Positions 7,134 through 35,312 of a DNA stretch of 64,000 bases are shown piece after piece. Position numbers and translations under genes: made by a program. A model generated the notes under the pieces. The model had not been told where the DNA came from. It worked only from the letters and a program-made list of their open reading frames with translations, and did not search any database. The first letter of the stretch is position 1. Every line of letters starts with the position of its first letter. Origin of the DNA: Candidatus Kaiserbacteria bacterium (GTDB taxonomy: Bacteria > Patescibacteriota > Minisyncoccia > Phycocordibacterales > UBA2100); NCBI GenBank assembly GCA_023267655.1, contig JAHFMV010000003.1:16522-80521 (forward strand). The letters run 5' to 3'.

Positions 7134-7543
7134 AATGCACTATGTACGAATTCGATTTGGCGCCGTGCGGATTAATCCCGTCAACATTTGCGACACGGTT
7201 TCGGCTTTCTTTTCAAGTGCAGTAAAAGAATCGCGGGAAATATATTCCAAATCGCGTGCGATGAGTAACTGGCTCCTCAACTCTGAAAGTGAAGCGAGCG
7301 AAGTCGTATAAAAATTGATCTTGTCATTTTTCGTCTGCCGCACGAATCCCTCTGCAATATTTGAAGTAACAGAAACTGCGGCGCGGCGGATCTGACTGGT
7401 TAATCCGAAAAGTTCATCTTTTGGAAAAGTCTTGCTGGCTGTATATATCTCAAGAACAAGCGAGTGACCTTCTTGCCAAACACGTAAGTCCGTAAAACGC
7501 TGGATCATGGTGCGGTATACGGAATACTGTATACGGTATACGC
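7100..7543 (-). other. cassette: four-helix-bundle gene bracketed by ~31-bp inverted repeats (cagtataccgtattccgtatacagtattccg 7100-7130; gcggtatacggaatactgtatacggtatacgc 7512-7543) in the pilC-pilB intergenic position
   Basis: Arms are reverse complements over about 20 of 22 core positions. The right arm abuts the pilB stop (7544); the left arm overlaps the annotated pilC start. Confidence 0.65.
7140..7508 (-). CDS. four-helix-bundle protein of the 23S rRNA intervening-sequence protein family
   Basis: MIQRFTDLRVWQEGHSLVLEIY...AVSVTSNIAEGF matches the family's conserved N-terminal pattern (compare paralog at 54115). ORF-track start (GTG 7547) is encoded by the repeat arm, so ATG at 7506-7508 is preferred. 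Confidence 0.7.
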   Translation of the reverse strand: MIQRFTDLRVWQEGHSLVLEIYTASKTFPKDELFGLTSQIRRAAVSVTSNIAEGFVRQTKNDKINFYTTSLASLSELRSQLLIARDLEYISRDSFTALEKKAETVSQMLTGLIRTAPNRIRT

Positions 7544-9286
7544 TCACTCCGTAATCACACGCAACACCTCTTCAATAGTAGTAACTCCTTGCGAGGCTTT
7601 AAAAATCCCGTCTTCGATCATCGTGAGCATTCCCTCGCTGCGTGCTTGTTTTTCAATTTCATCCGCGGTCGCATTTTTCATCACATGCTCCTTAATGGTT
7701 GCAGTAACCGGGAGGACTTCATAGATACCGCGACGACCCGCGTACCCTTCCGGACACTCTGCCGTCGGCCCTGGTTTATAAAACGGCACGGTTTTCCAGG
7801 TCGCATTTGCGGCGACGATCTTCTCGTCTTTCAGTGCCTTGAGGACGACGCCGGCATCCAACGTGCTCTCAAGCTGCGTCTGTTCGTCGCGCGAGAGTTC
7901 GTACTTTTCGTGGCTTGGGCAGAGCATGCGCACGAGGCGCTGTCCTATGACAACGCGCAGAGTCGAGACGAGGAGGAACGGCTCGATGCCCATATCGAGG
8001 AGACGCGGGATGGCTCCTGCCGCAGAATTCGTGTGCAAAGTAGAAAGCACAAGGTGGCCGGTGAGCGCCGCATTGATCGCGAGTGATGCGGTTTCCTTAT
8101 CACGAATTTCCCCCACCATAATGATGTCGGGATCTTGGCGCACGAGCGAACGCAACCCGTTGGCAAACGTAAATCCAATATCCGGGCGCACCTGCGTCTG
8201 GTTCACCCGCTTCATTTGATACTCAATCGGATCTTCGACCGTGGAAATATTCACATCCGGCGTATTCAAAAGATCGAGAATCGTATAGAGCGTGGTGGAT
8301 TTGCCGGCGCCGGTCGGACCCGTCGTTAAGATGAGGCCGGTCGTTTGTTTCATCGCGCCATGCATTTGCTCCAAACCTGATCCGTGGAATCCGAGCGCTT
8401 CGAGCGAAAAGCCCGCGACATTATCACGCAAGAGGCGCATCACGATCTTTTCGCCGTAGTACGTCGGCAAAATAGAAACACGAAACGAAATTTTCTCACC
8501 GCCCGCTTCGACGCCAAAGCGTCCGTCCTGCGGCAATCTTTTTTCATCGAGCCGCATGTTGCCGAGGACTTTAATGCGCGCAGTGATTGCGGGCGCAGCG
8601 TGTTTCGGCAATTCCATCGCATCATGCAAGATGCCGTCGATGCGGTAACGGATGAGGAGCGATTCTTCGAGAGGCTCGATATGGATATCAGATGCATTTT
8701 GCGCGTTCGCGTGGCGCAAGAGCGTATCAACGATGCGCACAGCACTCACTCCCTCCGCCATCTGTCGCAAGTCTTCTTGCTTTGCGTCCGCACTTCCTGT
8801 TTTCGCAAGCGCATCGGTCTCGCGCTTGATGACATCGCCGAGATTGTCTTTGAGACCACGCTGGTACTGCTTGAGTGCGAGTTTCACCGACGCAGCGTCA
8901 GTGAGACGCGGCAAGATTTTCAAATGCGTTTTCTTCTTAATGAAATCGATCGCGGCGAGATCGTCAGTATCGAGCATCGCCACCTCGAGCTGCTCGTCTT
9001 TGTGGCTGTAGGCAATGATCGAATTGTGCCTTGCGACCGGTTCGGGAATGAGGGAGAGCGTTTCAAATGGAATCTGCTGCCCTGCGAGCGAGACAAACGG
9101 GATGCCGAGGATGTATGCGTAGGTGCGACGCAGTTCGTCCTCGCCAATTTTATTCTCCGCGATGAGAATATCCCCAATCGGTTTCCCGCGCTCTTTCGCC
9201 TCACGCTCGGCGGCCTCAAAATCTTTGTTCGAGATGAGCCCCGCGTCGGCGAGAAACGATTTTAAATGGGTATCAGAAATGTACAT
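7544..9286 (-). CDS. pilB: type IV pilus assembly ATPase PilB (GspE family)
   Basis: N-terminal GspII-type domain, Walker A GPTGAGKSTTLY, Walker B and His-box regions; 580 aa. Confidence 0.9.
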   Translation of the reverse strand: MYISDTHLKSFLADAGLISNKDFEAAEREAKERGKPIGDILIAENKIGEDELRRTYAYILGIPFVSLAGQQIPFETLSLIPEPVARHNSIIAYSHKDEQLEVAMLDTDDLAAIDFIKKKTHLKILPRLTDAASVKLALKQYQRGLKDNLGDVIKRETDALAKTGSADAKQEDLRQMAEGVSAVRIVDTLLRHANAQNASDIHIEPLEESLLIRYRIDGILHDAMELPKHAAPAITARIKVLGNMRLDEKRLPQDGRFGVEAGGEKISFRVSILPTYYGEKIVMRLLRDNVAGFSLEALGFHGSGLEQMHGAMKQTTGLILTTGPTGAGKSTTLYTILDLLNTPDVNISTVEDPIEYQMKRVNQTQVRPDIGFTFANGLRSLVRQDPDIIMVGEIRDKETASLAINAALTGHLVLSTLHTNSAAGAIPRLLDMGIEPFLLVSTLRVVIGQRLVRMLCPSHEKYELSRDEQTQLESTLDAGVVLKALKDEKIVAANATWKTVPFYKPGPTAECPEGYAGRRGIYEVLPVTATIKEHVMKNATADEIEKQARSEGMLTMIEDGIFKASQGVTTIEEVLRVITE

Positions 9287-9456: not shown

Positions 9457-9684
9457 ATGACGATTCATCCTGACGGCTCGATGGAGCACAAAGTTACTGC
9501 ACCGCCGAAAACCGCGGCGAAGTTTCAAAAGTTGAAAGAGCGTCTGAAGGCGGATGAAGACGCCGAAGTCTATCGTCGCGTCTTCCAGATCGTCGATGCG
9601 CTTGTCGAGGATACCGACAAGGGCGAGAAATTCTTCAAGCGGAAGACCGATGGAACCATGGAAGAGGTTCATTTCTTCGTCTAG
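9457..9684 (+). CDS. hypothetical small protein (75 aa)
   Basis: ATG preceded by gggag RBS about 7 nt upstream; divergent from pilB. Confidence 0.4.
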   Translation: MTIHPDGSMEHKVTAPPKTAAKFQKLKERLKADEDAEVYRRVFQIVDALVEDTDKGEKFFKRKTDGTMEEVHFFV

Positions 9685-11515: not shown

Positions 11516-12763
11516 ATGGCTCTCTTTGACCTCAAAACACTCAACGCCGCGCTCGACGAGCTGCAGGCGGAAAAAGGTATTTCGCGCGCAAGCGTTGTCG
11601 AAGCGATCGCAACGGCGCTCGCTGCCGCGTATCGCCGCGAATACGGCAAGCGTGGACAAATCATCCGCGCAACATTTAATCCCGAGACGGGCGACTTGGA
11701 ATTTCGCCAGGCGAAAATCGTCGTCGACAATACTCTCGTTCGCCAAGAAGACGAGGAGCCAACATCAGATGAAGACCACCGTTCACGCTTCAACCCCGAA
11801 CAGCACATCATGATCGAGGACGCGCGTCGCATTAAGAAAGACGCAGCACTCGACGAAGAAATTTCCTTCCCGCTTGAATCACAAGAAGAATTCGGCCGCA
11901 TCGCCGCGCAAGCCGCAAAACAAGTCGTGATGCAGAAAATCCGCGAAGCGGAACGTGCATCCATCATCAATGAATACGGTGAACGCGAAGGCGAGATCGT
12001 CACCGGCCACGTGCAGCGCTTTGAACGCGGCAATCTGTACATCGACCTCGGTCGTGCGACAGCTGTGCTTCCGTACGACGAACAAATCCCGGGCGAACGG
12101 TATCGCCAAGGCGAGCGCGTGCGCGCACTTCTCCTTCGTGTTGATGAAGGTGTTCGCGGTACCTTCATCCGCCTTTCCCGCTCGCATCCAAAATTCCTCA
12201 CGAAACTTTTTGAGACTGAAGTGCCGGAACTCGCAAACCAGATTCTCGAAGTGAAAGGTGTCGTCCGCGAACCGGGTTCGCGCGCAAAAATCGCGGTACA
12301 TTCGAAAGACGAACATGTTGATCCTGTCGGCGCGCTTGTGGGACAGCGCGGCGTGCGTGTTGCTGTTGTCACGTCAGAACTCGGTGGCGAAAAAATCGAC
12401 GTCGTCGAATGGTCTGAAAAGGCAGGCGACTTTGTGAAAGAAGCACTCAAGCCCGCACAGGTCATGGACATCGAATTGAATGAGGATGAAAATCGCGCGA
12501 CGGTCACCGTCGCCGAAGATCAGCAATCACTCGCGATCGGCCGCGGCGGACAAAACGTCCGCCTCGCCGCACGTCTCACCGGATGGAAAATCGACATCCG
12601 CTCTGCGGGTGGCGAAAAGTCTGTCGAAGAACCAAAACCGGATGTGCCGGTTGAAGCGGAAACGACTGAAGAAAAAGCCACTGAAGGCGAGGAACTTACG
12701 AATCCCGAAGGCCAAGAAGATCGCGACATCCCGTCGGCCAAAGTTGAAGACGAGCAGAAATAG
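11516..12763 (+). CDS. nusA: transcription termination/antitermination factor NusA
   Basis: N-terminal NusA domain, S1 and two KH domains, acidic C-terminal tail. Confidence 0.9.
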   Translation: MALFDLKTLNAALDELQAEKGISRASVVEAIATALAAAYRREYGKRGQIIRATFNPETGDLEFRQAKIVVDNTLVRQEDEEPTSDEDHRSRFNPEQHIMIEDARRIKKDAALDEEISFPLESQEEFGRIAAQAAKQVVMQKIREAERASIINEYGEREGEIVTGHVQRFERGNLYIDLGRATAVLPYDEQIPGERYRQGERVRALLLRVDEGVRGTFIRLSRSHPKFLTKLFETEVPELANQILEVKGVVREPGSRAKIAVHSKDEHVDPVGALVGQRGVRVAVVTSELGGEKIDVVEWSEKAGDFVKEALKPAQVMDIELNEDENRATVTVAEDQQSLAIGRGGQNVRLAARLTGWKIDIRSAGGEKSVEEPKPDVPVEAETTEEKATEGEELTNPEGQEDRDIPSAKVEDEQK

Positions 12764-15611: not shown

Positions 15612-16679
15612 ATGTCCAAACCAACCATCACCCGCGATGAAAAAGCATGGGAACTTGCCATCAAGGGCGAAATCGCGCCTGAGAAAATAGCCGAACATCG
15701 CACACACGTGATCGCGCACCTAAAGAAAGACGCGCAGCTCCCCGGCTTTCGTCCCGGCAAAGCCCCCGAAGACGCGGTTGTCAAAGCCGTCGGCGAAGAG
15801 AGAATCATGCACGAAACCATCGAACACGCGATCCAGCACGATCTGCCGGAAATTCTCGCGGGCGAGAGCGTGAACATCATCGCCTCCCCCAAAGTCATCG
15901 TGGAGAGCGCACCAAAGAGCTTCCCCGCGACAGAGCCGATCATCTTTACGGCGCGAGCTCCGCTTGCGCCCGAAGTAAAACTCCCCGACTACAAAGCGAT
16001 CGCCAAAAAGCATACGGAATCAAAAACAGAAGTTACCGTCACCGACGATGAACACCAGCAGACAATGACGCATCTCAAGCGCGAACGTGCACGCATCACG
16101 AAAGTCGAACTCGGCGCGACGCCGCAAGAAGCCGCAGAACAAGCGCAGAAGATGGAAGAGAAAGATCTTCCGGCGCTCGACGATGAATTCGTCAAAACTC
16201 TCGGTTACGAATCGCTCGAAAAATTCACCGAATCAGTGAAGGCAAATATTAAAACGGAAAAAGAAATGCGCGAGACGGAAAAACGCCGCGCGGCCATGCT
16301 CGACGAATTGATCGAGAAATCCAAGATCTCCTACCCCACCCTTCTTCTCGACTACGAGCTCGATGATATGGAGGCGCGCCTCAAACAAGATCTCGATCAT
16401 ATGAAAGTCACCTTCGAACGCTACCTTACGGAAACTAAAAAGACCGAAGAGGATTTACGAAATGAATGGAAGCCAGCCGCCGATAAACGCGCCAAGATGC
16501 GCCTCATCCTCTCCCACATCGCCATCGCCGAAAAAATCGACGCCGACACCGAGCGAGTCGAGCGCGAAGTAAAAAACGCCATCCAGCATTATCCCCAAAC
16601 CAACGAAGCAAACTTGAGAGCCCACATCACCCACGCCCTCCGCAATGAAGCGGTGATTACTTTTTTGGAGCAACAATAA
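15612..16679 (+). CDS. tig: trigger factor (short form; PPIase domain apparently absent)
   Basis: N-terminal ribosome-binding region with GFRPGKAP signature; 355 aa; followed downstream by clpP as in the canonical tig-clpP order. Confidence 0.8.
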   Translation: MSKPTITRDEKAWELAIKGEIAPEKIAEHRTHVIAHLKKDAQLPGFRPGKAPEDAVVKAVGEERIMHETIEHAIQHDLPEILAGESVNIIASPKVIVESAPKSFPATEPIIFTARAPLAPEVKLPDYKAIAKKHTESKTEVTVTDDEHQQTMTHLKRERARITKVELGATPQEAAEQAQKMEEKDLPALDDEFVKTLGYESLEKFTESVKANIKTEKEMRETEKRRAAMLDELIEKSKISYPTLLLDYELDDMEARLKQDLDHMKVTFERYLTETKKTEEDLRNEWKPAADKRAKMRLILSHIAIAEKIDADTERVEREVKNAIQHYPQTNEANLRAHITHALRNEAVITFLEQQ

Positions 16680-16692
16680 TAGCCGCGAGGAT

Positions 16693-16947
16693 TCAAGAAA
16701 CCGCGCGTTCAAGGGCCCGTCGGATAAACCGCTGCGTTTTGATTCCCTCTTTTGCGGCCTTCTTTTTTACGCTTGCATACAGGTTTTCTGGTAGCCGCAC
16801 ACTCACCGCAAGCGACTTCGGCTCAAATTCAAAATGCACCCGCTTGAAGCCTGAAAGATCATATTCCGACAAGTCGGCTGTTTCCAGAAAGTGTTCGGCC
16901 TGCTCGTCTGACAAGAGGCGTGGTATTTTTTTGAGTTTTTTTGTCAT
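16693..16947 (-). CDS. brnA: BrnA-type antitoxin (CopG/RHH-like)
   Basis: Pattern DLSEYDLSGFKRVHFEFEPKS...VRLPENLYASVKKKAAKEGI...FIRRALERA matches the BrnA antitoxin family; overlaps brnT by 4 nt. Confidence 0.7.
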   Translation of the reverse strand: MTKKLKKIPRLLSDEQAEHFLETADLSEYDLSGFKRVHFEFEPKSLAVSVRLPENLYASVKKKAAKEGIKTQRFIRRALERAVS

Positions 16948-17237
16948 AGTTTTTCAAAACGCTTAATTTCTTTCCTATGCATGTATCGCGCGCTTATAGG
17001 ACGAACAAGCATTATCCCGTCTCGCTCCCGATAAGTGAACACAACCGCGACATACCTGCCCTCGTAATTTTTACCGGCGGCAATCTGCCTATCCTCTGTT
17101 TCCGAATGCTTGAGATCGGGATAGATGGTCGGATCACGCAAGAAGAGAAACTCTATCTCGGCGATCGACACGCCGTGCTTCTCGCACTTCTTTGTATTGG
17201 CAGAATCCCAATCAAAGCCGTGCGCGCTTCCCTCCAT
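16944..17237 (-). CDS. brnT: BrnT-type ribonuclease toxin (DUF497)
   Basis: FDWDSANTKKCEKHGVSIAEIEFLF...RQIAAGKNYEGRYVAVVFTYR...RPISARYMHRKEIKRFEK matches the BrnT pattern. Confidence 0.7.
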   Translation of the reverse strand: MEGSAHGFDWDSANTKKCEKHGVSIAEIEFLFLRDPTIYPDLKHSETEDRQIAAGKNYEGRYVAVVFTYRERDGIMLVRPISARYMHRKEIKRFEKL

Positions 17238-17296
17238 CTACCCATACTACCAAATGTATATACAATTGTACATACACTTATCCACAACCGGTTTTC

Positions 17297-17365
17297 CCCC
17301 AGCCCACATCTCCCAACGCCCTCCGCAACGAGGCGGTCATTACGTTTCTTGAGACCCAAAAATAG
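17297..17365 (+). repeat. degenerate direct duplicate of the tig 3' end (compare 16617-16680), flanking the brnTA insertion
   Basis: gcccacatctcccaacgccctccgcaacgaggcggtcattacgtttcttgagacccaaaaatag versus gcccacatcacccacgccctccgcaatgaagcggtgattacttttttggagcaacaataatag (about 80% identity, same reading frame relic). Confidence 0.65.
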
Positions 17366-17368
17366 TTG

Positions 17369-17396
17369 TTGACGCGTGGCGAAAGAGTGCTATCTT
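17369..17396 (+). promoter_or_regulatory. sigma-70-like promoter TTGACG-N16-TATCTT
   Basis: Read directly; located between the brnTA insertion and a small ORF/clpP. Confidence 0.4.
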
Positions 17397-17440
17397 CCAG
17401 GTGCGTCACACATCACGACGCTGGCACACAGGAGTTTACG

Positions 17441-17626
17441 ATGGCGAAGAAAAAGGTTCCACGCACCGCACAAGATACACAGCCTATCAAGGAGACACGC
17501 CCCCCGCGTGTGCGCCCGAGTACTGGTCACGGATCCGTCATCCACGGCAATGATCGCGGCAACCCACAAATCCAGGATGATTACTGTGGTTGGGGCGATG
17601 GAACATCAACTACCGAGGCCTTCTAG
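17441..17626 (+). CDS. hypothetical small protein (61 aa)
   Basis: ATG with aggag RBS 7 nt upstream; followed by a clean terminator. Confidence 0.3.
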   Translation: MAKKKVPRTAQDTQPIKETRPPRVRPSTGHGSVIHGNDRGNPQIQDDYCGWGDGTSTTEAF

Positions 17627-17653
17627 CGAGAGATTCTGTGAGTATTCACCAAG

Positions 17654-17689
17654 CAGTTGGAGTCTTCACCTCCAACTGTTCTTTTTTAT
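17654..17689 (+). terminator. intrinsic terminator (cagttggag-tcttcac-ctccaactg then ttcttttttat)
   Basis: Read directly from sequence. Confidence 0.65.
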
Positions 17690-17735
17690 CCGCTAGAATG
17701 GCACCACAAAACCCGTTGTGATACTATGCCGTGGT

Positions 17736-18335
17736 ATGAAAAACACACCAATCACTGCGCAAATGTTAGTCCCGATGGTCATCGAGAAGTCCTCGATGGG
17801 CGAGCGAGCGTATGATATCTACTCGCGCCTCCTCAAGGAGCGCATCATCTTCCTCGGCGGCCCGATTAATGACGAAGTAGCAAACCTCGTCGTCGCGCAG
17901 ATGCTCTTCCTCGCTTCCGAAGATCCAAAGAAAGACATCTCCTTCTATATCAATAGCCCGGGCGGCCACGTCGCGGCGGGACTCGCGATCGTCGACACCA
18001 TGAACCACATCCAGCCGGATGTCTCGACCGTCTGCGTCGGTATGGCTGCATCGATGGGCGCCGTCCTGCTTTCCGCAGGCAAAAAGGGCAAGCGATTCGC
18101 GCTCCCAAACGCGGAAGTCATGATTCACCAGCCATCTGGCGGCGCGGAAGGCATGGCCTCGGATATCGAGATCACCGCCAAGCATATCCTTGCGACCCGC
18201 GAGCGCCTCAATAAGATGCTCGCAAAAAACAGCGGCCAAAAGCTTGAAAAGATAGAAAAAGACGTCGATCGCGACTTCTTCATGACCGCCGAGGAGTCCG
18301 TGAAATACGGGATTATCGACAAGGTGCTGGAGTAG
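17736..18335 (+). CDS. clpP: ATP-dependent Clp protease proteolytic subunit
   Basis: Conserved ClpP core [23 protein letters not shown], catalytic Ser/His/Asp context [11 protein letters not shown]...MIHQP. Start chosen at ATG 17736 (ORF-track GTG at 17718). Confidence 0.85.
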
Positions 18336-19235
18336 CTAGTGCCTCAAACTGTCTTGGAGGGAACGCAATTGCCTCCCGATCTCAAACGCGACATTCATGA
18401 GCCCTACGCGCGCCGGTTGTGAGCTTCCGGCACGTGCCACGCCCTCTTGATACCGGCGTTTAAGCAACTCGGAAAGCGAAAGAAAACTATCGTCTTCTTC
18501 GTGCGAACCGGTCTCCCGCGAGCGTTTTACATGTTCAAGCGCGGTGTGATGCACGTCGACAATGCGGTCGGTAAACATCATGCCAATGATTCCGACAAAG
18601 CTCGCGTTCGCACGTCGCTGCGCAATGTTATCGCCTTCCATAGATTGCGGCATGTGCGCCTTCTTCAATTCACTCGCCGGCGGCGGATTAAATTCTCCAA
18701 TTGACGTATTGATGCCTCGAGCAGCCAGCTCTGCGACGATTTTCTCCGATTCCATCATTCGAATTGCTTGGCGCTCACGCCCAAGAGAAACGAGGGCTTC
18801 GTCTCGCGAAGCAAAACCAAGTGCATTCCAGCTATCGGCGAGACGCTCAACTGCCTTTGGTAGCATGTCTCGCACCTGGGCGGTATAGACATCCTCGTGG
18901 GTTGCACCAACCGCCTGTAACAATTTTCCGATGGGTTTGTATTCTGTCGTCACTTCCCCGGCCGCGTTGGAGAGTTCAGAAAATGGTATGCCCCCGGTGA
19001 GGCGTTTCGCAAGCAGCGCACTCGCTTCGAGACAAATGTGCTCAAGCTCTTTGGGTGCCTCGTCGACGAACGCCCCCATCTCGTTAAACGCTTCGCGTCC
19101 CTCGGCAGCGGCATACTTGGCGTAGTTCTCTTCGGGCGGAACACCGTTGGGGCCCAGTTCTTTCAGCATCTCGCGGAGACTTTCCTTGCGCCCTTCCTCT
19201 TTCGCCTTCGTGCCAAGTAGCCATTCAAGTGCCAT
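18336..19235 (-). CDS. hypothetical protein (299 aa)
   Basis: ORF only. Confidence 0.35.
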   Translation of the reverse strand: MALEWLLGTKAKEEGRKESLREMLKELGPNGVPPEENYAKYAAAEGREAFNEMGAFVDEAPKELEHICLEASALLAKRLTGGIPFSELSNAAGEVTTEYKPIGKLLQAVGATHEDVYTAQVRDMLPKAVERLADSWNALGFASRDEALVSLGRERQAIRMMESEKIVAELAARGINTSIGEFNPPPASELKKAHMPQSMEGDNIAQRRANASFVGIIGMMFTDRIVDVHHTALEHVKRSRETGSHEEDDSFLSLSELLKRRYQEGVARAGSSQPARVGLMNVAFEIGRQLRSLQDSLRH

Positions 19236-19492: not shown

Positions 19493-21025
19493 ATGTTATC
19501 TATAAAATTTGTCCTTGCCCTCCTTGCCCTTGCGGGTCTTGTCGGCATTGCCTTCGGATATTTCCTCCGTTGGATCATTTCCCTCGGAAAACGAGGCTCG
19601 ATGGAACTTGAAATCAAGCAGATGATGCTTGATGCGCAAGAAAAAGGAAAAAAGATCATCGAAGAGAGCGAGCAGCGCGTCCGCGAAAAAGAAGAGACTA
19701 TTTCGGGAGAGTTGAAAGAAAAAGAGCGCGACTTGAAACAGATGGAAGAGCGTCTCATTAGGAAGGAAGAGATGGTTGACCAACGTCAGCACAATGTTGA
19801 TACCGAGAACGAATCGCTCAAATCCCAGACGGCGGAAGTTACAAAATTAAAGGAACGTGCCGATACTCTCATCCACGAACAGCAGGTGAAGCTTGAAAAA
19901 GTCGCCGGCCTCTCAAAAGACGAGGCGAAAAACGAGCTGCTCTCCTCGATCGAGAAACAGTACGAGAACGACCTCGAGAGCCGCATGCGCAAGCTCGAAA
20001 TCTCCGGCAACGAAAAGCTCGAGGCACGCGCCAAAGAAATCCTCACCACATCAGTCCATCGTCTTGGTAATTCCGTCGTCTCTGACGTCCTCGCGACGAC
20101 CGTTTCGATCCCGAATGACGATTTGAAAGGCAAAATTATCGGAAAAGAAGGCCGCAATATTCGCACATTCGAGAAAATGACGGGCGTTGATGTCATCGTC
20201 GATGATACGCCGGGCACGATTACCCTCTCCTGCTACGATCCGGTTCGCCGCCAAATCGCGCGCATCGCGCTCGAGAATCTTATTCTCGACGGCCGCATCC
20301 AGCCGGCAAAAATCGAAGAGGCCGTGCAAAAAGCCGAGGGAGAAATCGGCAACATCATCAAGAAAAAAGGTTCTGAAGCCGCGTACAACGCACGCGTCAC
20401 GAACCTCGACCCGAAACTCTTTATGATCCTCGGCCGTCTCTATTTCCGCACCAGCTACGGCCAGAACGTCCTCGATCACTCGGTTGAAATGGCGCACCTC
20501 GCGGGCATGCTCGCGGAAGAATTAGGCGCAGATCCTGCGGTTGCGCGCGCTGGTGCACTTCTGCACGACATCGGCAAAGCCGTCGACCATGAAGTTCCCG
20601 GCACGCACGTCGAAATCGGTCGTCGCATCCTCCAAAAGTTCGGCGTCGATGAGAAAGTCATCAAAGCGATGCAGGCGCATCATGAAGAATATCCGTACGA
20701 GACGCCCGAGAGCATGATCGTGCAAGTCGCCGACGCCGTCTCCGGCGGCCGACCAGGCGCTCGTCGCGATTCAATCGAGCAATACGTGAAGCGCCTCGAA
20801 GACCTCGAAGCGATCGCTAAGAAGCATCCCGGTGTCGATAAAGTCTACGCAATCTCCGCAGGTCGCGAAGTCCGCGTATTCGTTCGCCCTGAAGAAATCT
20901 CTGACCTCGACGCCCGCAAGTTAGCTCGCGACATCGCCGATCAAATCGAAAAGGAAATGCAATACCCTGGGGAAATCAAAATCAACGTCATTCGAGAAAA
21001 CCGCGTTATCGAGTACGCCCGCTAG
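19493..21025 (+). CDS. rny: ribonuclease Y
   Basis: N-terminal TM helix, coiled-coil, KH domain (GKIIGKEGRNIRTFEKMTG), HD domain (LLHDIGKAVDHEV...HH). Confidence 0.85.
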   Translation: MLSIKFVLALLALAGLVGIAFGYFLRWIISLGKRGSMELEIKQMMLDAQEKGKKIIEESEQRVREKEETISGELKEKERDLKQMEERLIRKEEMVDQRQHNVDTENESLKSQTAEVTKLKERADTLIHEQQVKLEKVAGLSKDEAKNELLSSIEKQYENDLESRMRKLEISGNEKLEARAKEILTTSVHRLGNSVVSDVLATTVSIPNDDLKGKIIGKEGRNIRTFEKMTGVDVIVDDTPGTITLSCYDPVRRQIARIALENLILDGRIQPAKIEEAVQKAEGEIGNIIKKKGSEAAYNARVTNLDPKLFMILGRLYFRTSYGQNVLDHSVEMAHLAGMLAEELGADPAVARAGALLHDIGKAVDHEVPGTHVEIGRRILQKFGVDEKVIKAMQAHHEEYPYETPESMIVQVADAVSGGRPGARRDSIEQYVKRLEDLEAIAKKHPGVDKVYAISAGREVRVFVRPEEISDLDARKLARDIADQIEKEMQYPGEIKINVIRENRVIEYAR

Positions 21026-22067: not shown

Positions 22068-22100
22068 CAAAATCTGCCCGACGGCGGATTTTTGTTTTAC
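22068..22100 (+). terminator. intrinsic terminator-like hairpin (aaatctgcc-cgac-ggcggattt then ttgtttt)
   Basis: 8-bp stem with one mismatch plus T-run. Confidence 0.45.
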
Positions 22101-22127
22101 AGCGATATTCGTGTAGAGTTATCGAAC

Positions 22128-22198
22128 GCGGGATTAGTTTAATGGCAAAATGCGACTTTTCCAAAGTTGAATCGGGGGTTCGATTCCCCCATCCCGCA
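22128..22198 (+). tRNA. tRNA-Gly (anticodon TCC)
   Basis: Manual cloverleaf: acceptor gcgggat/atcccgc, D arm gttt-aatggca-aaat, anticodon arm cgact-ttTCCaa-agttg, T arm ggggg-ttcgatt-ccccc; 71 nt, no encoded CCA. Confidence 0.75.
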
Positions 22199-22202
22199 CT
22201 CT

Positions 22203-23369
22203 ATGGTTCGCTCTCTTCTACAACTTGCGGCCTCGCTTGGCATTGCATGCATTTTGGTGGCAGTCCTGTACATCGATGGCGCACAAGCACCCGTGTCTCT
22301 GCTATATCAACCAGCATCAACAACCCCATCAATCACAGAATCAACCTCGACGCCGCTCATTGCGTCAACGACCGTTGCAACGAGTACCGCAAAAAAGACA
22401 CCGGTAAAAAAAGCCGCGGCTAAGGCACAAAAGAGTCAAATAGCGACGACAACGCAAGGCCAGAGTGCAACAACGAGCACAAATGAAGTGCATCGTATCG
22501 AAAATCCCTACCCATTTCCCCCGCTTGCATCAGATTCGATCAATCAAAGCGCCCGCGCAGCTCTCGTGAATGTGTTTTGCCAAACTGCGGGAGGGCCGAT
22601 CAGCTCTATTTCAGGCTCCGGCGTGATTATTGATCCTCGGGGGGTTATTTTGACGAATGCCCACGTCGCGCAGTATGTCCTACTCTCCACGGAACCCGCT
22701 GCGGGATTGAATTGCTATATCCGCACCGGATCCCCCGCCGAAATACATTGGAACGTCGGCATTCTCTATATTCCAGCCGCTTGGGTGCAATTGCATGCAC
22801 AAGATATCGTCAAATCGAAGCCAAAAGGCACCGGCGAAAATGATTATGCGCTCCTGGTGATTACAGGTAGCACCGACGGCAACGCTCCACCAACAACCTT
22901 CCCCTACCTCCCGCCCGATACTCGTGAAGCCATTGGCTTTACGAGTGATCCAGTGCTCGTCGCCGCATATCCGGCGGAATTTGCCGGTGCATCGACACAA
23001 ACCGCACTATATCCCTCGACAGTCTTCACTCGTATCGGCGACCTACTTACGTTTGATGAGAGCACTGTTGATATCATTTCCCTTGGAAGTGTCGCGGTTG
23101 CCCAAGGTGGCTCATCGGGTGGCGGCGCCGTTAACGAATGGGGTCGGTTAGTGGGTGTTGTCACGACCACAAGCGAGGGAGAGACGACCGCGAATCGCGA
23201 ATTACGTGCCATTACGCTGGCCTATATCAATCGCGATATGCTTCGCAAAACTGGATCTACCCTCTTGAACTATATCGGTGCAGACCCCCTCACTAAGGCA
23301 CGAAGCTTTACGCAGAATGAAGCCCCGCTTCTCGCAAAGCAGGTTTTAGGCAATCTCCAAGGTCGCTAA
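22203..23369 (+). CDS. trypsin-like (S1/DegP-type) serine protease, membrane-anchored, Thr/Ala-rich linker
   Basis: His box GVILTNAHV, Asp DYALLV, Ser box GGSSGGGAV. ORF-track start at 22167 overlaps the tRNA, so ATG at 22203 is preferred. Confidence 0.65.
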   Translation: MVRSLLQLAASLGIACILVAVLYIDGAQAPVSLLYQPASTTPSITESTSTPLIASTTVATSTAKKTPVKKAAAKAQKSQIATTTQGQSATTSTNEVHRIENPYPFPPLASDSINQSARAALVNVFCQTAGGPISSISGSGVIIDPRGVILTNAHVAQYVLLSTEPAAGLNCYIRTGSPAEIHWNVGILYIPAAWVQLHAQDIVKSKPKGTGENDYALLVITGSTDGNAPPTTFPYLPPDTREAIGFTSDPVLVAAYPAEFAGASTQTALYPSTVFTRIGDLLTFDESTVDIISLGSVAVAQGGSSGGGAVNEWGRLVGVVTTTSEGETTANRELRAITLAYINRDMLRKTGSTLLNYIGADPLTKARSFTQNEAPLLAKQVLGNLQGR

Positions 23370-23376
23370 AATTTAA

Positions 23377-23447
23377 TCGGGGCGCCGAGAATCGAACTCG
23401 GTCTACTTGGTCCCAAACCAAGCGTACTACCGGTATACTACGCCCCG
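23377..23447 (-). tRNA. tRNA-Pro (anticodon TGG)
   Basis: Reverse complement folds as acceptor cggggcg/cgccccg, anticodon arm cttgg-ttTGGga-ccaag, T arm ccgag-ttcgatt-ctcgg; 71 nt. Confidence 0.7.
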
Positions 23448-23560
23448 CTCTTTTCTACTCACAAAAAACTTCTTCGCGTACGCCATACTACCACGGAAAA
23501 TTGCAAAGTGTACAACTTATAAAGGACACGGCGTGTCCAATATAATGTCCTTTACATATT

Positions 23561-23956
23561 TCACAGTATTTGCTCGAACAAACGACACCGCGCTTTCCTC
23601 GTAATGGGGTCTAGAATGACTCCCACCGCATCAATTTGATATTCCCTATCATCTTCCTTGTGTGCCATGTACAACTGCGCCGTACGAACAATCTTCTTAA
23701 GTTTAGCTGGATGAATCTGCTCTTCCGGCCGATACGAGTTGCTTTCACGTGAAAGACTCTCAAGATCGCCAGATACTGCTTTAACCTCGATAAAACGAAC
23801 TTCGTTATTTTTGAGGGCTATTATATCGATCTCACCCCATGGTTTCCGATAATTCATCTCGATAACTTTGAATCCTTTGCGCTCAAGAAACTGCCGTGCG
23901 ATATCCTCTCCAAGTGCACCAGTCTGACTCGTCTTACTTTTAAGCATACATTTCAC
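23561..23956 (-). CDS. YraN-family (UPF0102) endonuclease
   Basis: GE(D)IARQFLERKGFKVIEMNYRKPWGEIDIIALKNNEVRFIEVKA matches the YraN/UPF0102 pattern; AT-rich coding sequence. Confidence 0.55.
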   Translation of the reverse strand: MKCMLKSKTSQTGALGEDIARQFLERKGFKVIEMNYRKPWGEIDIIALKNNEVRFIEVKAVSGDLESLSRESNSYRPEEQIHPAKLKKIVRTAQLYMAHKEDDREYQIDAVGVILDPITRKARCRLFEQIL

Positions 23957-24159
23957 GTGAAAGCACCATATCTATGTTTCTTAAGTTACATTTAAGATGC
24001 CTTTCACGCGAAACTTCCTGTCTAATACAATAATATAGCTCAAAATATGCCTTTCTAAAGGAATGCGTCTTTTAATGAAGACACTGGTCATTTGTCCGAT
24101 ATCCACATATCCCCAGAGTTGTCCACATATCATAATATATTAAGACGTGAACTGAACCA

Positions 24160-24861
24160 TTGTCTGTTACTATTCAATATATGAGAAAAGATAAAATGTT
24201 AGCGATAAATATGAGGAAAACAGGTAGCAGTTACAACGAAATTCTTGAAGCTTTGAGAATTCCAAAAGCAACTCTATCGGACTGGTTTTCTAAGGAGGGA
24301 TGGTCTAATGATATCAGAAAAAAACTGACGACGACCGCGTACGAGGCACATTCCGTGAGAATGCGTGAGCTGGGTCGCGTTAGGGGAATTCATTTAGCGA
24401 ACGTGTATGGTGAGGCGCGACAAGAAGCGATCGTCGAGTACGAAGCAATGAAATATAATCCTCTTTTTATAGCTGGACTGATGACGTATTGGGGAGAGGG
24501 GGACAAGGCAACAAAACACACTGTGAGACTCACGAATACTGATCCTGAAATGCTGCGTTTATTCTTAATCTTTCTCACAAAAGTGTGTAGTATTCCACTG
24601 GAGAAAATTGGAGCACATATTCTAATTTATCCTGATTTAGAAGCAAAAAATTGCCTTGACTATTGGTCGCAGAAAACAGGACTGCCTATCGAACATTTTA
24701 CAAAATGTGTCACGATACAAGGCCGTCATAAAACAAAACGCCTCGGATTTGGGGTTGCAGAAATGTACGTCTGCAGTACGTATTTTAAAGCGAAAGTTCT
24801 AAAATGGCTTGAGTTATTGCCGCAGGAGTTGATGAGCAGAGAATATTATGCGAGTATATGA
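24160..24861 (+). CDS. hypothetical protein with N-terminal HTH-like region and a weak LAGLIDADG-like segment (FIAGLMTYWGEGD)
   Basis: AT-rich ORF (visibly lower GC than surroundings) between tRNA-Pro and tRNA-Gly; family assignment uncertain. Confidence 0.35.
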   Translation: MSVTIQYMRKDKMLAINMRKTGSSYNEILEALRIPKATLSDWFSKEGWSNDIRKKLTTTAYEAHSVRMRELGRVRGIHLANVYGEARQEAIVEYEAMKYNPLFIAGLMTYWGEGDKATKHTVRLTNTDPEMLRLFLIFLTKVCSIPLEKIGAHILIYPDLEAKNCLDYWSQKTGLPIEHFTKCVTIQGRHKTKRLGFGVAEMYVCSTYFKAKVLKWLELLPQELMSREYYASI

Positions 24862-24866
24862 CCGAC

Positions 24867-24937
24867 GCGGGTATGGTTCAATGGTAGAACAGGTGGTTGC
24901 CAATCACCTGATAGGAGTTCGATTCTCCTTACCCGCA
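24867..24937 (+). tRNA. tRNA-Gly (anticodon GCC)
   Basis: Acceptor gcgggta/tacccgc, D arm gttc-aatggta-gaac, anticodon arm ggtgg-ttGCCaa-tcacc, T arm aggag-ttcgatt-ctcct; 71 nt. Confidence 0.8.
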
Positions 24938-24955
24938 CAAAGAAGTTTTATCAGT

Positions 24956-25027
24956 TGCTCCCGCCAAGAGTCGAACTTGGAACGGCTGCTTCGAAGGCAG
25001 TAATGATATCCATTTCACCACGGGAGC
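24956..25027 (-). tRNA. tRNA-Arg (anticodon TCG)
   Basis: Reverse complement: acceptor gctcccg/cgggagc, anticodon arm actgc-ctTCGaa-gcagc (one A:C mismatch), T arm ccaag-ttcgact-cttgg; 72 nt. Confidence 0.6.
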
Positions 25028-25075
25028 TTGATGCACATCATACGTGGAATTCATTCGCGATGCTAGAATGCCTGC

Positions 25076-26536
25076 ATGAAGCGATCGGTTCCGCAAGAGG
25101 TACTTGATGTGCATTCGCGACTGCGTAAGGCAGGATTTGAGGCATACCTTGTGGGCGGGTGCGTGCGAGATCTCCTCCTGAACAGAGAACCGAAAGATTG
25201 GGATATTACGACGAACGCAAAGCCAGAGGAGATTCAACCCCTCTACGAAGAAACATTTTATGAAAATGCTTACGGCACCGTCGGTGTGGTCACACAATCA
25301 GAAAATCCGCGGTTGAAAGTCATCGAGGTGACACCGTACCGCATCGAAGGGGAGTACTCGAATGCACGACACCCTGACGATGTGACGTGGGCAAATAATC
25401 TCTCTGATGACCTCAAGCGTCGCGATTTCACCATCAACGCAATCGCATACGACCCCGAGACCGATACCGTTGTCGACGAGCATAATGGTCAGGAGGATAT
25501 TAAGAAAAAAGTGGTTGCAAGCGTTGGCGACCCGAACGAACGCTTTGCTGAAGACGCATTGCGCATGCTCCGTGCCATCCGTATCGCGGCAGAATTAGAT
25601 TTCGCGCTTGATGGAAATACGGCACAGGGGATCGCTCGAAATGCGTCCAAATTAGGGGATATTTCGAGGGAGCGTGTTCGCGACGAGCTCATCCGCATTT
25701 TAATGAGCGATCGGCCGCTACAGGCCCTCTACGTGGCTCAAAAGCTTGGTATTTTGAAGTACATCATCCCGGAACTTGAAGAAGGGATTGGGTGCGCCCA
25801 GAATCAAGCGCATTCATTCGACGTATTTGAACACCTCATGCGCTCACTCCAGCATGCGGCGGATAAAAAGTGGCCGCTGGAAGTCCGCCTCGCCGCGCTT
25901 CTTCACGACGTAGGGAAGCCGGCCACCCGCCGCTTTTCAGAAGATAAAAAAGATTGGACATTCTATGGTCACGACGTAGTCAGCGCTCGCATGGCAAAGA
26001 AAATCCTCTCCGAACTCAAATTTTCAAAAGAAGTAATCGCAAAAGTTGAAATCCTCGTCCGCTGGCACATGTTTTTCTCCGACCCCGATACCGTGACTCT
26101 CACCGCTGTCAGGCGTCTCATTTCGCGTGTGGGAGCGGAAAACATGCCGGACTTAGTAAATCTACGTGTTTGCGACCGCATCGGCACCGGCAGGCCAAAA
26201 GCGCATCCATTTAGGTTACGCAAATACATGTCGATGATCGACGAGGCGATGCGCGACCCGGTATCGGTTGCAATGCTCAAGATTGACGGGAATAGGATTA
26301 TGGAAGTAGGGGAGAAGGCAGGGCCTCGTATCGGCTGGGTGTTGCACGCGCTCCTGGAAGAAGTCCTCGACGATCCGGCAAAAAACTCGGAAGAATATCT
26401 TGAAAACCGCACGCAAGAACTGCTTAAATTATCTGATGAGGCGTTAAAAAAAGTGGGGGAGGCGGGCAAGGATCGCAGGGCAGAAGAGGACGCTGCGGCT
26501 GTGAAAGTCCTCCGTGATAAACATCACGTCTCCTGA
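25076..26536 (+). CDS. cca: CCA-adding tRNA nucleotidyltransferase with HD domain
   Basis: PolyA-pol/CCA head GGCVRDLLL...DWDITT...RRDFTINAIAYD and HD motif LLHDVGKP. Confidence 0.85.
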   Translation: MKRSVPQEVLDVHSRLRKAGFEAYLVGGCVRDLLLNREPKDWDITTNAKPEEIQPLYEETFYENAYGTVGVVTQSENPRLKVIEVTPYRIEGEYSNARHPDDVTWANNLSDDLKRRDFTINAIAYDPETDTVVDEHNGQEDIKKKVVASVGDPNERFAEDALRMLRAIRIAAELDFALDGNTAQGIARNASKLGDISRERVRDELIRILMSDRPLQALYVAQKLGILKYIIPELEEGIGCAQNQAHSFDVFEHLMRSLQHAADKKWPLEVRLAALLHDVGKPATRRFSEDKKDWTFYGHDVVSARMAKKILSELKFSKEVIAKVEILVRWHMFFSDPDTVTLTAVRRLISRVGAENMPDLVNLRVCDRIGTGRPKAHPFRLRKYMSMIDEAMRDPVSVAMLKIDGNRIMEVGEKAGPRIGWVLHALLEEVLDDPAKNSEEYLENRTQELLKLSDEALKKVGEAGKDRRAEEDAAAVKVLRDKHHVS

Positions 26537-26569
26537 ATTCCCAAGTAAGGCGACCAGCCGTATTGGCAG

Positions 26570-26675
26570 AAGGCAAAAAATGCTTCACGAGGGTCTTCGC
26601 AGCGGCGTCGGGCGCGAGACCGAGCGCTGGCGCAGCAGCGCCAGATAGCGACCCGAGGGAAGCATTTTTTGCCTT
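26570..26675 (+). other. long hairpin: 17-bp perfect inverted repeat aaggcaaaaaatgcttc / gaagcattttttgcctt enclosing a 72-nt GC-rich interior
   Basis: Shares the AAAAATGCTTC...GAAGCATTTTT closing stem and the GCGCAGCAG / CAGATAG words with the ~110-nt 3' element family; lies 34 nt after the cca stop. Confidence 0.5.
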
Positions 26676-26703
26676 TTGCCACAAACATACAAAGCAAAAG
26701 CCG

Positions 26704-26728
26704 CCCGGTTGTACCGGGTCTTTCTATT
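26704..26728 (+). terminator. intrinsic terminator-like hairpin (cccggt-tgt-accggg then tctttctatt)
   Basis: Read directly from sequence. Confidence 0.45.
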
Positions 26729-27077
26729 CCGGTACCGCTGAGCGGCTAACTTGTCCTGTTCTCGAAATAAGGTCATCTGGTTTATCTACAGTACGTTTTC
26801 CATTTTTGAGACAAAGGGTCTCTATATAAAGGGTGTACTTGTATAAACCGAATCTCCTCAAAAGATCACGGATACAGGATATCTGTCTAGTATGTAATAC
26901 CTGACAGTGGCTTCGTAAAACCTCGGAGAAAGGTTTCCCTTTCTTCCTCTTGTGTTTTAGAGGGGCCAAATATAGGAAGAAATAAATCTTCCCTGCAGAT
27001 AAGAATACTTTGCTATCGGACATTGTAAAGGACATGCTGTGGATAACTTCATGCGCCGATCATGTCCTTTAAAAAAG

Positions 27078-27878
27078 CTAGACTTTGAGCTCTATACTGA
27101 CGGGGCAGTGGTCGGAGCCGAAAATGTCAGGATGAATTTTTGCCGCCGTAATTTTAGGAACGAGTGATTTGCTCACAAAATAGTAGTCGATTCTCCAGCC
27201 AACATTACGTGCGCGAGCATTTCCAAAGACGCTCCACCACGTATAGAACCCTTTGCCTTTTGTGAACTTTCTAAAAATATCAACAAAGCCTGCATCAATG
27301 ATCTGGTCGATTCCCTCACGCTCCTCCTTGGTATACCCATGACCGCCCTCATTGGCTTTCGGGTTGGTGAGATCGTCCGGCGTATGCGCGACATTAAGAT
27401 CTCCGCAGAAAATGACCGGCTTTGTCTTCTCAAGGCGCTTCATAAAAGCAAGAAATGCTGGATCCCATTGCTTGTGACGGAGGCCAAGGCGACTTAGGTC
27501 GGGTTTGGCGTTGGGAGTGTAGGAGTTAACGACAAAAAAGTCCTTAAATTCAGCCGTAATAACCCGTCCTTCTGCGTTCACATCACCGTAAGAGTCGCCC
27601 TCAAGCTTATATTTCTTCGCAAGGTCATGGGGAATACCTAAGATCACACTTTCGGGCTTTATCTTCGAGAAAATCGCCGTTCCGCTATAACCCTTCTTGC
27701 GAGTCGATGAATTCCAATATTCCTCATATTCGGGAAGGTCGATTTCTGCCTGCCCTTTCTCAGCTTTAGTCTCTTGGAGGCAGATAATGTCCGGTTTCAG
27801 AGCCTTCACGGCAGGAATAAACATATCTTTCCGGACTACCGCCCGAATTCCATTCACGTTCCATGATACGAGTCTCAT
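27078..27878 (-). CDS. xth: exodeoxyribonuclease III (AP endonuclease)
   Basis: MRLVSWNVNGIRA...DIICLQETK and C-terminal catalytic His/Asp motifs of the Xth/ExoIII family. Confidence 0.85.
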   Translation of the reverse strand: MRLVSWNVNGIRAVVRKDMFIPAVKALKPDIICLQETKAEKGQAEIDLPEYEEYWNSSTRKKGYSGTAIFSKIKPESVILGIPHDLAKKYKLEGDSYGDVNAEGRVITAEFKDFFVVNSYTPNAKPDLSRLGLRHKQWDPAFLAFMKRLEKTKPVIFCGDLNVAHTPDDLTNPKANEGGHGYTKEEREGIDQIIDAGFVDIFRKFTKGKGFYTWWSVFGNARARNVGWRIDYYFVSKSLVPKITAAKIHPDIFGSDHCPVSIELKV

Positions 27879-34428: not shown

Positions 34429-34803
34429 CTACAAAGCTATTTTGGTCGCCTTGTAGTATTCACGGAGCGAACTGAACTTACCACCTTTTATCTGGAGGAT
34501 CGCCACTTCTGTCATCTGAATCCTCGAGTTGCTCTTTGTGTCTGTAAACTCCGCATCCCATTCTGCAATCACAGTATCTCCGTCAGCCCAAACATGTAGA
34601 AGCTTAAAGTGAATGCTGCTCTGTTCGCCCTGCACTTTGCTTACCCAATATTTCCGAATGCCCTCGTGTCCGAAGTTTTCAGGCTCTTCCGGATCTTTGT
34701 AGGAGGCATCTTCTGAAAAAAGAGTGAGTATAAGATCAGGGTCCTGTTTCTCCCATGCTTTGCCGTAGATGCGCAATAGCCGCGTTGCTTCTTTCTTTGT
34801 CAT
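34429..34803 (-). CDS. SnoaL-like / NTF2-like fold protein
   Basis: Size and pattern (LFSEDASYKDPEEP...WDAEFTD) resemble the SnoaL_2/DUF4440 family; low certainty. Confidence 0.4.
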   Translation of the reverse strand: MTKKEATRLLRIYGKAWEKQDPDLILTLFSEDASYKDPEEPENFGHEGIRKYWVSKVQGEQSSIHFKLLHVWADGDTVIAEWDAEFTDTKSNSRIQMTEVAILQIKGGKFSSLREYYKATKIAL

Positions 34804-35186: not shown

Positions 35187-35312
35187 AACTATATTTTGTG
35201 TTTGACTTAGATGATAAATGACAGAGATACAGAACGCTTCCTCGATGAAGCCGCGAACGAATCGTGACTTCAAAAGAGGAGAGAACGTACGATTCTCTCC
35301 AACAGGCGGCGG

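Follow-up and report, generated by a model that had tools for sequence, protein, structure and literature searches.

How did a toxin–antitoxin (TA) module come to lie between the trigger factor gene tig and clpP, and why does a second copy of the end of tig follow it? The question is raised by a 64,000-nucleotide stretch of a Candidatus Kaiserbacteria genome (contig JAHFMV010000003.1, positions 16,522 to 80,521; hereafter the window, in whose own numbering coordinates are given), in which tig (15612–16679, plus strand) is followed by the antitoxin gene brnA (16693–16947) and the toxin gene brnT (16944–17237), both on the minus strand, by a displaced remnant of the tig 3′ end (17300–17365, plus strand), and then by clpP (17736–18335, plus strand). 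The overall best explanation, toward which we lean, is that the cassette in 16680–17300 arrived via 3′-end displacement at tig. The layout recurs in two independent assemblies (loci L001 and L002 of the comparison set below) and is therefore no assembly artifact.

The central observation is the duplicated gene end. tig is intact at 355 amino acids, and direct repeats of its 3′ end lie at 16618–16682 and 17300–17365. The first, on the plus strand and delimited by alignment with the remnant, is the functional end of the gene, comprising its last ~20 codons (AHITHALRNEAVITFLEQQ*, the asterisk marking the stop codon) with the tail ...LEQQ*; the second, recognized by its identity to the first, reads ...AHIS(+1 nt)NALRNEAVITFLETQK* and has the canonical xQK* tail. 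The alignment of 16619–16682 with 17301–17365 spans 65 columns at 81.5% identity and has a single 1-nt indel (blastn E = 1.6e-10), and the remnant matches a profile of relatives' tig 3′ ends (nhmmer E = 1.4e-15); a tig-end profile search of the 64 kb found no further copy besides the remnant. The original prediction, made from the letters of the DNA, had described an in-frame copy of ~80% identity. The identity holds, and the copy is in frame only from ...NALRNEAVITFLETQK* onward, since an additional A near 17314 shifts its upstream A-H-I part out of frame.

The differences between the two copies bear on their origin. Across 12 codons (ALRNEAVITFLE) they differ at 6 bases, all 6 of them synonymous, an outcome that random substitution yields in about 1 per 10,000 trials (P ~ 1e-4); the copies of another lineage (L004) show 9 synonymous codon changes versus 1 non-synonymous. 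Because the differences are all, or nearly all, synonymous, the copies must have diverged inside working tig genes of different genomes, and duplication in place followed by decay is excluded. One of the window's two tig ends, whichever it may be, is thus shown to be foreign. The tails point the same way: tig ends that abut brnA carry non-canonical tails (QQ*, NR*, SQ*, and NQI*), remnants carry the xQK* tail found in most relatives' tig genes, and ...LEQQ* precedes brnA in two settings, at the live end of tig in the window and at the end of a displaced copy (copy A) in L056. The window remnant is 92% identical to the tig end of L043 and 95.6% (43/45) identical to that of L047.

We compared 60 loci, retrieved via relatives of tig or BrnA and cited here by L numbers. 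tig has 782 homologues, the nearest in metagenome-assembled genomes (MAGs) of Patescibacteria/Paceibacteria, and these homologues put the window among Paceibacteria/Minisyncoccia and "Kaiserbacteria"-like MAGs; the closest by tig (P0002, 88% identity) has its DNA outside the comparison, in which the nearest relatives with DNA have trigger factors 74–78% identical to that of the window. The gap between tig and clpP is ~50 nt in L010 and L017, ~100–150 nt in five loci (L009, L013, L024, L032, and L036), and 0.5–1.25 kb in four (L018, L020, L025, and L022); it widens to 2.4 kb in L014 and to ~4.5 kb in L015, L016, and L008, the largest exceeding 4.5 kb; clpP is out of reach of tig in some loci. 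In L010 and L017, a conserved clpP promoter-like motif, TTTGCR-N17-TATACACT, stands directly after the tig stop codon, an arrangement that looks like the empty state of the site; the empty or near-empty interval that the original prediction proposed to seek in relatives is found in these two loci. Where the slot is filled, its cargo varies by lineage, with TA, abortive-infection (Abi), and restriction–modification (RM) genes predominating: BrnTA, YafQ/RelB, HEPN/nucleotidyltransferase (HEPN/MNT), AbiEii/DUF6922, and an orphan brnA accompanied by a SocA/Panacea antitoxin pair and by a restriction enzyme of the MmeI type, together with GNAT, methyltransferase, and small membrane proteins. The tig–clpP interval is a hypervariable, lineage-wide cargo slot in Paceibacteria, members of the Candidate Phyla Radiation (CPR).

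Extra tig-end copies occur downstream of tig in five other lineages, with one to three in each: one in L004, three in L046, one in L050/L051, one, shorter, in L055, and three in L056–L060, which are five assemblies of one species. At most three or four cassettes, each with a tig-end copy of its own, are thereby stacked at the site. All copies share the strand of tig and set modules apart, and their left end falls within ~6 nt of the A-H-I codons in 4 of the 5 lineages, the L055 copy beginning ~20 nt further in. L050/L051 have exactly the architecture of the window, tig-brnA-brnT-remnant, and the homology of L050 to the window spans brnT, the palindrome upstream of it, and the remnant, ending 3 nt past the remnant stop codon. 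In L056–L060, tig is followed by AbiEii-DUF6922, copy A (...LEQQ*), brnA-brnT, copy B (...EEQK*), an 81-amino-acid open reading frame (ORF), and a truncated copy C (...ENQK*). L056 holds the unit of tig end, brnA-brnT, and remnant, moved one AbiE cassette away from tig, and its copy C with the sequence downstream is 82% identical to the remnant and downstream sequence of L050. In L055, whose tig is 54% identical to that of the window, the order is tig, AbiE, the short remnant, DUF6629, brnA-brnT, and further on clpP; apart from this short remnant, self-BLAST found none in distant lineages (50–55% tig identity). The L046 copies (8200–8253, 9633–9683, and 12477–12531 of that locus) separate glpX, then a brnA fragment with a 111-amino-acid ORF and an HTH/Panacea gene, then greA-tmk-radical SAM-CYTH, and further genes, and in L004 a second tig end lies 37 nt past the tig stop codon without TA genes between. 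An IS200/IS605-type Y1 transposase gene (PF01797) is found at the distal end of the array in L056/L057 (5599–6027), past the truncated third remnant.

Two features of these arrays are informative about how they grew. The most decayed copies are distal (the fourth tig end of L046 has AL changed to VV and an indel, and copy C of L056 is truncated), which fits insertion at tig displacing older copies outward. In addition, neighboring copies in L050, L046, and L056 have exact runs of 29–42 nt in common, sufficient for RecA-type recombination. The original prediction had counted a duplicated segment without the TA genes as a result that would speak against integration. Such segments do exist in L004, L046, and L056, yet integration is not refuted by them; tig-end duplication is therefore a general property of the site and not specific to BrnTA. 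The displaced tig end, its recurrence in five lineages, and the empty sites bear out the earlier reading of the interval as the footprint of a cassette at the tig 3′ end. This anatomy and its recurrence are directly observed; we infer circular intermediates and, as the enzyme system, homologous recombination.

By this route, the incoming DNA would be circular or repeat-flanked and would carry cargo together with a duplicate of roughly the final 60 nt of tig. As the simplest process to account for all the features, a single Campbell-type crossover between the tig-end homology of the cassette and the resident tig 3′ end would keep tig whole, now with the cassette-supplied tail ...LEQQ*, and would displace the former tail ...ETQK* to become the remnant at 17300–17365. 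The enzyme system would most likely be ordinary homologous recombination on a conserved coding segment, possibly following DNA uptake. Repeated rounds would stack cassettes, the newest beside tig and one tig-end copy ahead of each, and crossover between copies may excise or swap modules. Pfam annotations and a motif scan found no recombinase gene, either in the interval of the window or in those of the relatives examined, and regular-expression scans of all loci for tyrosine and serine recombinase motifs returned only a housekeeping Xer-like gene; a cassette-borne recombinase was accordingly rejected, the sole motif match lying 13 kb away. A phage or plasmid vehicle was likewise rejected, as IMG/VR searched with two degenerate tig-end patterns and with BrnA gave no match.

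Several observations weigh against 3′-end displacement by homologous recombination. The two window copies share an exact run of only 13 nt, too short for efficient homologous recombination today, and no circular intermediate or excision junction was observed. The frequency of identical codons in the tig end (0.62–0.65 vs. a gene mean of 0.55) is barely above average, such that nothing marks this segment as an unusually good recombination anchor; a similar peak elsewhere in tig also led us to reject the tig end as an attachment (att) signature by nucleotide conservation. Cargo-bearing loci without a detectable remnant (L014, L015/L052, L016, L006, L043, and L044) indicate that other routes also operate, for example, double-crossover replacement or deletion. 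Finally, the near-constant left boundary of the repeats across cargo types also fits a site-specific enzyme. This last point is the ground for a serious rival, which we nevertheless regard as unlikely: the last ~60 nt of tig would be the attB site of small recombinase-less cassettes, with a recombinase acting in trans, either the Xer-like tyrosine recombinase at 30710–31618 or the integrase of a helper element, as for Xer-exploiting elements, Acinetobacter pdif modules, and ccr-less staphylococcal cassette chromosome (SCC) elements at rlmH. The nearly fixed A-H-I boundary over unrelated cargo, tandem arrays like those of SCC composites and IMEX elements (which exploit Xer), the failure to find a cassette-borne recombinase, and the presence of a highly conserved Xer-like gene (PF00589, E = 3e-43; the window and L057 proteins share 88.6% identity) are all as such integration would predict, and pdif modules are known to carry brnT/brnA (PMC7530245). 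However, no dif-like architecture (inverted arms of ~11 bp on either side of a 6–8-bp spacer) is seen by eye in the repeat, whose sole inverted repeat is CCGC-N6-GCGG; no block longer than ~10 nt is invariant over all copies; the left boundaries vary by up to ~6 nt in most copies and by ~20 nt in L055; and IMG/VR contigs have no tig-end or brnA match that could be a helper or attP carrier. Over 12–24 kb the cumulative GC skew declines monotonically, without a switch around 17 kb; this puts the site away from the replication terminus, and a terminus or dif location for it was rejected.

The remaining explanations do without ongoing mobility at the site. A single ancient insertion could have been inherited vertically, with gene conversion refreshing the remnant and other lineages losing or replacing the module, and no mobility now under way. 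The collinear block in the window, L047, L049, and L050, with nucleotide divergence equal to that of tig, agrees with this account, and so does the fact that remnants have the same F/W state as the tig end of the genome in which they lie. We nonetheless consider it improbable: brnA types are discordant with the tig tree, a crude neighbor-joining tree puts brnA-bearing lineages in separate clades, each different cargo cassette in L046 and L056 has a separate tig-end copy, and the window copies, differing at the 6 synonymous sites and in their tails, have not been homogenized. Alternatively, the tig end could have been duplicated locally, in tandem or through slippage during replication, or the contig could be an assembly chimera, the TA genes being present by chance; this account deserves very little credence and is effectively refuted already. 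Slippage can create short repeats, and MAG contigs may be chimeric at conserved segments, but purely synonymous differences between copies are incompatible with in-place duplication and neutral decay, the 13-nt longest shared run is far under assembler k-mer sizes, and the layouts are repeated in independent assemblies, both for the window strain (L001/L002) and, fivefold, for L056–L060.

We put forward a broader proposal tentatively and with more doubt than confidence. Paceibacteria may hold a hitherto undescribed, integrase-free cassette-array system that uses the last ~60 nt of tig as a dedicated, recurrent recombination site, at which a shared pool of TA, Abi, and RM cassettes, some of them housekeeping-like, would be inserted, stacked, excised, and exchanged between lineages; such an "integron without an integrase" would be run by the conserved Xer-like recombinase or by uptake-driven homologous recombination.

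BrnT/BrnA is a type II TA system first described in Brucella abortus (PF04365 and PF12441). The 97-amino-acid BrnT matches BrnT_toxin (PF04365) over profile positions 1–77 of 77 (E = 7.5e-19; 68.3 bits vs. a cutoff of 34.5), and the 84-amino-acid BrnA matches CopG_antitoxin (PF12441, E = 6.7e-23; 81.7 vs. a cutoff of 28) and, at residues 48–82, RHH_1 (24.4 vs. 20.5). The original prediction of a BrnT/BrnA pair at these coordinates between tig and clpP therefore passes the profile search, with both Pfam domains above their gathering scores, and BrnT is a predicted ribonuclease toxin with BrnA as its putative CopG/ribbon-helix-helix (RHH) antitoxin. No NCBIfam model matches BrnT, BrnA is not of the equivalog subfamily because it scores 19 versus 60 bits with BrnA_antitoxin_add, far under the cutoff, and a solved toxin structure (7vd7, PDB) matches BrnT weakly (E = 0.002). 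brnT (17237 to 16944) and brnA (16947 to 16693) overlap by 4 nt (ATGA) with the toxin gene first, as expected of a bicistronic operon with an upstream toxin gene and probable translational coupling; the toxin-first order is also found in L047–L051 and L055–L060. The BrnT copies of the window, L050, L055, and L047 have in common an N-terminal GFDWD...KHG motif and a C-terminal RPISAR motif. Upstream of brnT, the promoter region of the operon (17238–17300) holds a 22-bp near-palindrome, TGTATATAC-AATT-GTACATACA (17255–17276), read from the sequence, and the surrounding block TGTATAyACAATTGTAyATACAmTTATCCACA is kept in L050 and L056; BrnA probably represses the brnTA operon through this candidate operator. 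Relatives of BrnA at 75–93% identity form ~45 protein clusters, of which the named ones are all from Patescibacteria MAGs, and those whose contigs were retrieved adjoin or lie near tig. The window BrnT/BrnA is a Patescibacteria-specific subclade. It is like known BrnT/BrnA systems in having both Pfam domains, toxin-first order with the 4-nt overlap, a C-terminal RHH in the antitoxin, and an upstream palindrome, and unlike them in failing the NCBIfam models and matching the structure weakly, its activity being predicted. Taken alone, the TA pair is ordinary.

Module decay is seen in several relatives. In L015/L052–L054, brnA is still beside tig (~5056–5310 in L015) in a decayed module, and L015/L052 have a 131-amino-acid gene, an HTH-SocA/Panacea pair, and an MmeI-type enzyme in place of brnT. 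The BrnT of L049 (27–287) has an internal deletion and is 86 amino acids long, and the brnA of L046 matches residues 1–47 only.

How old is the module? It had been thought recently acquired, which neither its composition nor its divergence supports. The GC content and GC3 of brnA (0.488 and 0.524) lie within 1 standard deviation of those of 70 ORFs of the window (0.521 ± 0.038 and 0.570 ± 0.079), and the GC dip at the locus is modest (~0.47); recent foreign acquisition on compositional grounds was rejected, and the suggested check of the interval at 16690–17240 gave no sign of foreignness for brnA. The window, L047, L049, and L050 share a collinear tig-brnA-brnT block. At the nucleotide level, the window and L047 are 74.7% identical in tig, 75.7% in brnA, and 75.5% in brnT, and their BrnA proteins are 93% identical; a nucleotide divergence equal to that of tig with so conserved a protein indicates long purifying selection since the lineages split. 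BrnA is 87% identical between L015 and L055, whose trigger factors are 60% identical, and L015 BrnA is only 77–79% identical to the BrnA of its tig-level peers. This discordance shows that brnA types have passed laterally, as cassettes, between lineages. At the level of strains, the independent assembly L001 (ENA ERZ27279977) is identical to the window over ~7.5 kb and then has 11 mismatches in its final 80 nt (window 17162–17241), which fall in the 5′ end of brnT, the contig stopping at the brnT start; these mismatches reflect either recombination between strains, with a breakpoint on the right of the cassette, or an artifact of the contig end.

The effect of the insertion on clpP can be judged from the region between the remnant and that gene, which matches PF00574 (E = 3e-84) and TIGR00493 (321.6 vs. 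308.6) by its product. The original prediction placed a fresh promoter, a small ORF, and a terminator here and proposed that clpP transcription had been rewired. The terminator stands: a good hairpin with an 11-bp stem and a T-run lies at 17652–17690 on the plus strand. The sigma-70-like hexamer pair TTGACG-16-TATCTT (17369–17396, plus strand; 9/12 match) is weak evidence for a promoter, as a scan found 4 such sites versus 2.2 ± 1.4 expected by chance, and it is not kept in any relative compared. The orphan 61-amino-acid ORF (17441–17626, plus strand) is probably not a conserved gene and was rejected as a real one, having no Pfam or NCBIfam match and no homologue: a search of 1.84 billion representative proteins returned, besides itself, just two long unrelated proteins that match weakly and in part (E ~ 1e-6), and tblastn of related loci gave no match. 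Positions 17366–17651 have no counterpart in related loci and are lineage-specific filler. A noncoding RNA or riboswitch between the remnant and clpP was also rejected, as the fold of 17397–17700 is no better than that of shuffles (z = −0.54) and an Rfam scan of the window found only four tRNAs, none of them in this segment. We compared clpP upstream regions over 20 loci. A promoter-like motif at 17699–17727 on the plus strand (TGGCACC...N...TGTGATACTAT) occurs also in L043 and L014, most other relatives having TTTGCR-N17-TATACACT there instead, and L043 and L014 have a hairpin and T-run at the matching position ahead of it despite different cargo upstream. Given that motif and terminator are shared whatever lies upstream, clpP appears to carry its own insulated promoter. 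Since the gene keeps this terminator-plus-promoter unit, conserved in L043 and L014, the insertion probably did not rewire clpP.

The trigger factor and the wider window offer further observations. Pfam places the trigger factor N-terminal domain (Trigger_N) at residues 13–153 and the C-terminal domain (Trigger_C) at 201–334, with no FKBP/peptidyl-prolyl isomerase (PPIase) domain detected; the NCBIfam model TIGR00115 scores 180.1 versus a cutoff of 180.2. The trigger factors of all close relatives have 350–369 amino acids, and JGI labels them "FKBP-type peptidyl-prolyl isomerase (trigger factor)"; the 355-amino-acid protein looks like a PPIase-less type typical of the lineage. The Xer-like (XerC/D-like) gene, on the minus strand, has diverged far less than tig between the lineages of the window and L057; only ~6 kb separate it from the tig array in L057, because the clpP-rny segment is not downstream of tig in that locus. 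Just beyond clpP, a 299-amino-acid ORF (18336–19235, minus strand) without a Pfam or PADLOC match precedes the RNase Y gene (19493–21025), which directly follows clpP in L043, L052, and L055; related loci have no homologue of this ORF, and it looks like a second lineage-specific insertion. The region at 22100–27100 has lower GC (0.40–0.48), tRNA genes at 22128, 23377, 24867, and 24956, and ORFs without Pfam matches at 24160–24861 (GC 0.41) and 26724–27035 (GC 0.41), and may be another variable region. Proteins that resemble bAvd accompany diversity-generating retroelements, and low-GC genes for such "23S rRNA intervening sequence"/bAvd-like four-helix-bundle proteins (PF05635, E ~ 1e-38) are found at 7140–7547 (minus strand) and 54115–54483 (plus strand). 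Two adjoining low-GC genes at 34429–35273 (minus strand) have products with a SET domain (PF00856, E = 1e-14) and a SnoaL-like fold family match (PF12680, E = 2.5e-18), respectively; for a reduced genome, a methyltransferase of the SET-domain type is unusual cargo.

CPR/Patescibacteria have tiny genomes, thought to be poor in classical defense and mobile-element machinery. The tig locus gives them a compact way, anchored on a core gene's conserved tail, to gather and trade TA, Abi, and RM modules without a cassette-borne integrase and, if general, serial tig-end copies would be a simple signature for accessory and defense cargo in thousands of uncultured genomes. The same observations counsel caution in annotation, in that the orphan antitoxins of these genomes, like their pseudo-fragments of the tig end, are scars of recombination and not genes. 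They also show a housekeeping gene undergoing the "3′-end displacement" that was known from polymorphic-toxin loci.

Displacement of rhs C-terminal ends via circular intermediates was proposed by Jackson et al. 2009 (PMC2935791), and the same logic would, by analogy, support 3′-end displacement at tig. Like rhs/cdiA arrays, the tig loci have an intact upstream gene and same-strand displaced 3′ fragments, each with its own cargo and the newest adjoining the gene (three remnants in L046 and L056–L060; one each in the window, L004, L050, and L055), and the route proposed for those arrays is homologous recombination through circular intermediates with a short conserved anchor. Unlike those arrays, the tig loci belong to CPR bacteria and have as their anchor the 3′ tail of a chaperone gene with housekeeping function, nearly constant in protein sequence; the conserved tig tail (ALRNEAVIxxLE) has no toxin tip, nor the pairing of toxic tip and immunity gene, and the cargo consists of TA, Abi, and RM operons that are independent of the anchor and mostly lie on the other strand. 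The 3′ ends of conserved genes (rlmH/orfX, trmE, tRNA, and tmRNA) also serve genomic islands and SCC elements as integration sites. The tig cassettes resemble them in that the target 3′ end is restored, the displaced end forms the far-side direct repeat, and tandem composites and empty sites occur, and differ in having no integrase or recombinase in or beside the examined cassettes, which are ~0.3–3 kb in size. Xer-dependent IMEX elements and Acinetobacter pdif modules, some with brnTA, have been described (PMC7530245 and PMC12907356), the pdif modules being, by analogy, the closest precedent for recombinase-less modules; like the tig cassettes, such modules lack a recombinase, are bounded by repeated recombination sites, often bear TA genes, and have moved between replicons. 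Unlike those sites, the tig repeats are coding sequence in direct orientation with no recognizable dif architecture, the aligned copies having only a weak CCGC-N6-GCGG inverted repeat by eye, and with no GC-skew switch such as marks the terminus, where chromosomal IMEX elements sit. Neisseria minimal mobile elements are variable cassettes between conserved genes, exchanged by transformation and homologous recombination (PMC3787668), and there too two core genes frame alternative cassettes, often RM or TA, without dedicated mobility genes; unlike their double crossover in both flanks, which leaves no duplicated flank, serial tig ends record single-crossover-type insertions. In integron arrays and clusters of attC sites lacking integrases (CALIN), structured attC sites with RYYYAAC...GTTRRRY cores set the cassettes apart; here, by contrast, the repeat is tig coding sequence, with no GTTRRRY core at the boundaries of the aligned copies and no integron integrase. 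In our literature searches, neither integration at tig nor this Patescibacteria hotspot was found described. Both 3′-end displacement and hotspots are known in general, and what is new, on these searches, is the recurrent, integrase-free stacking of cassettes on tig 3′-end copies in the CPR.

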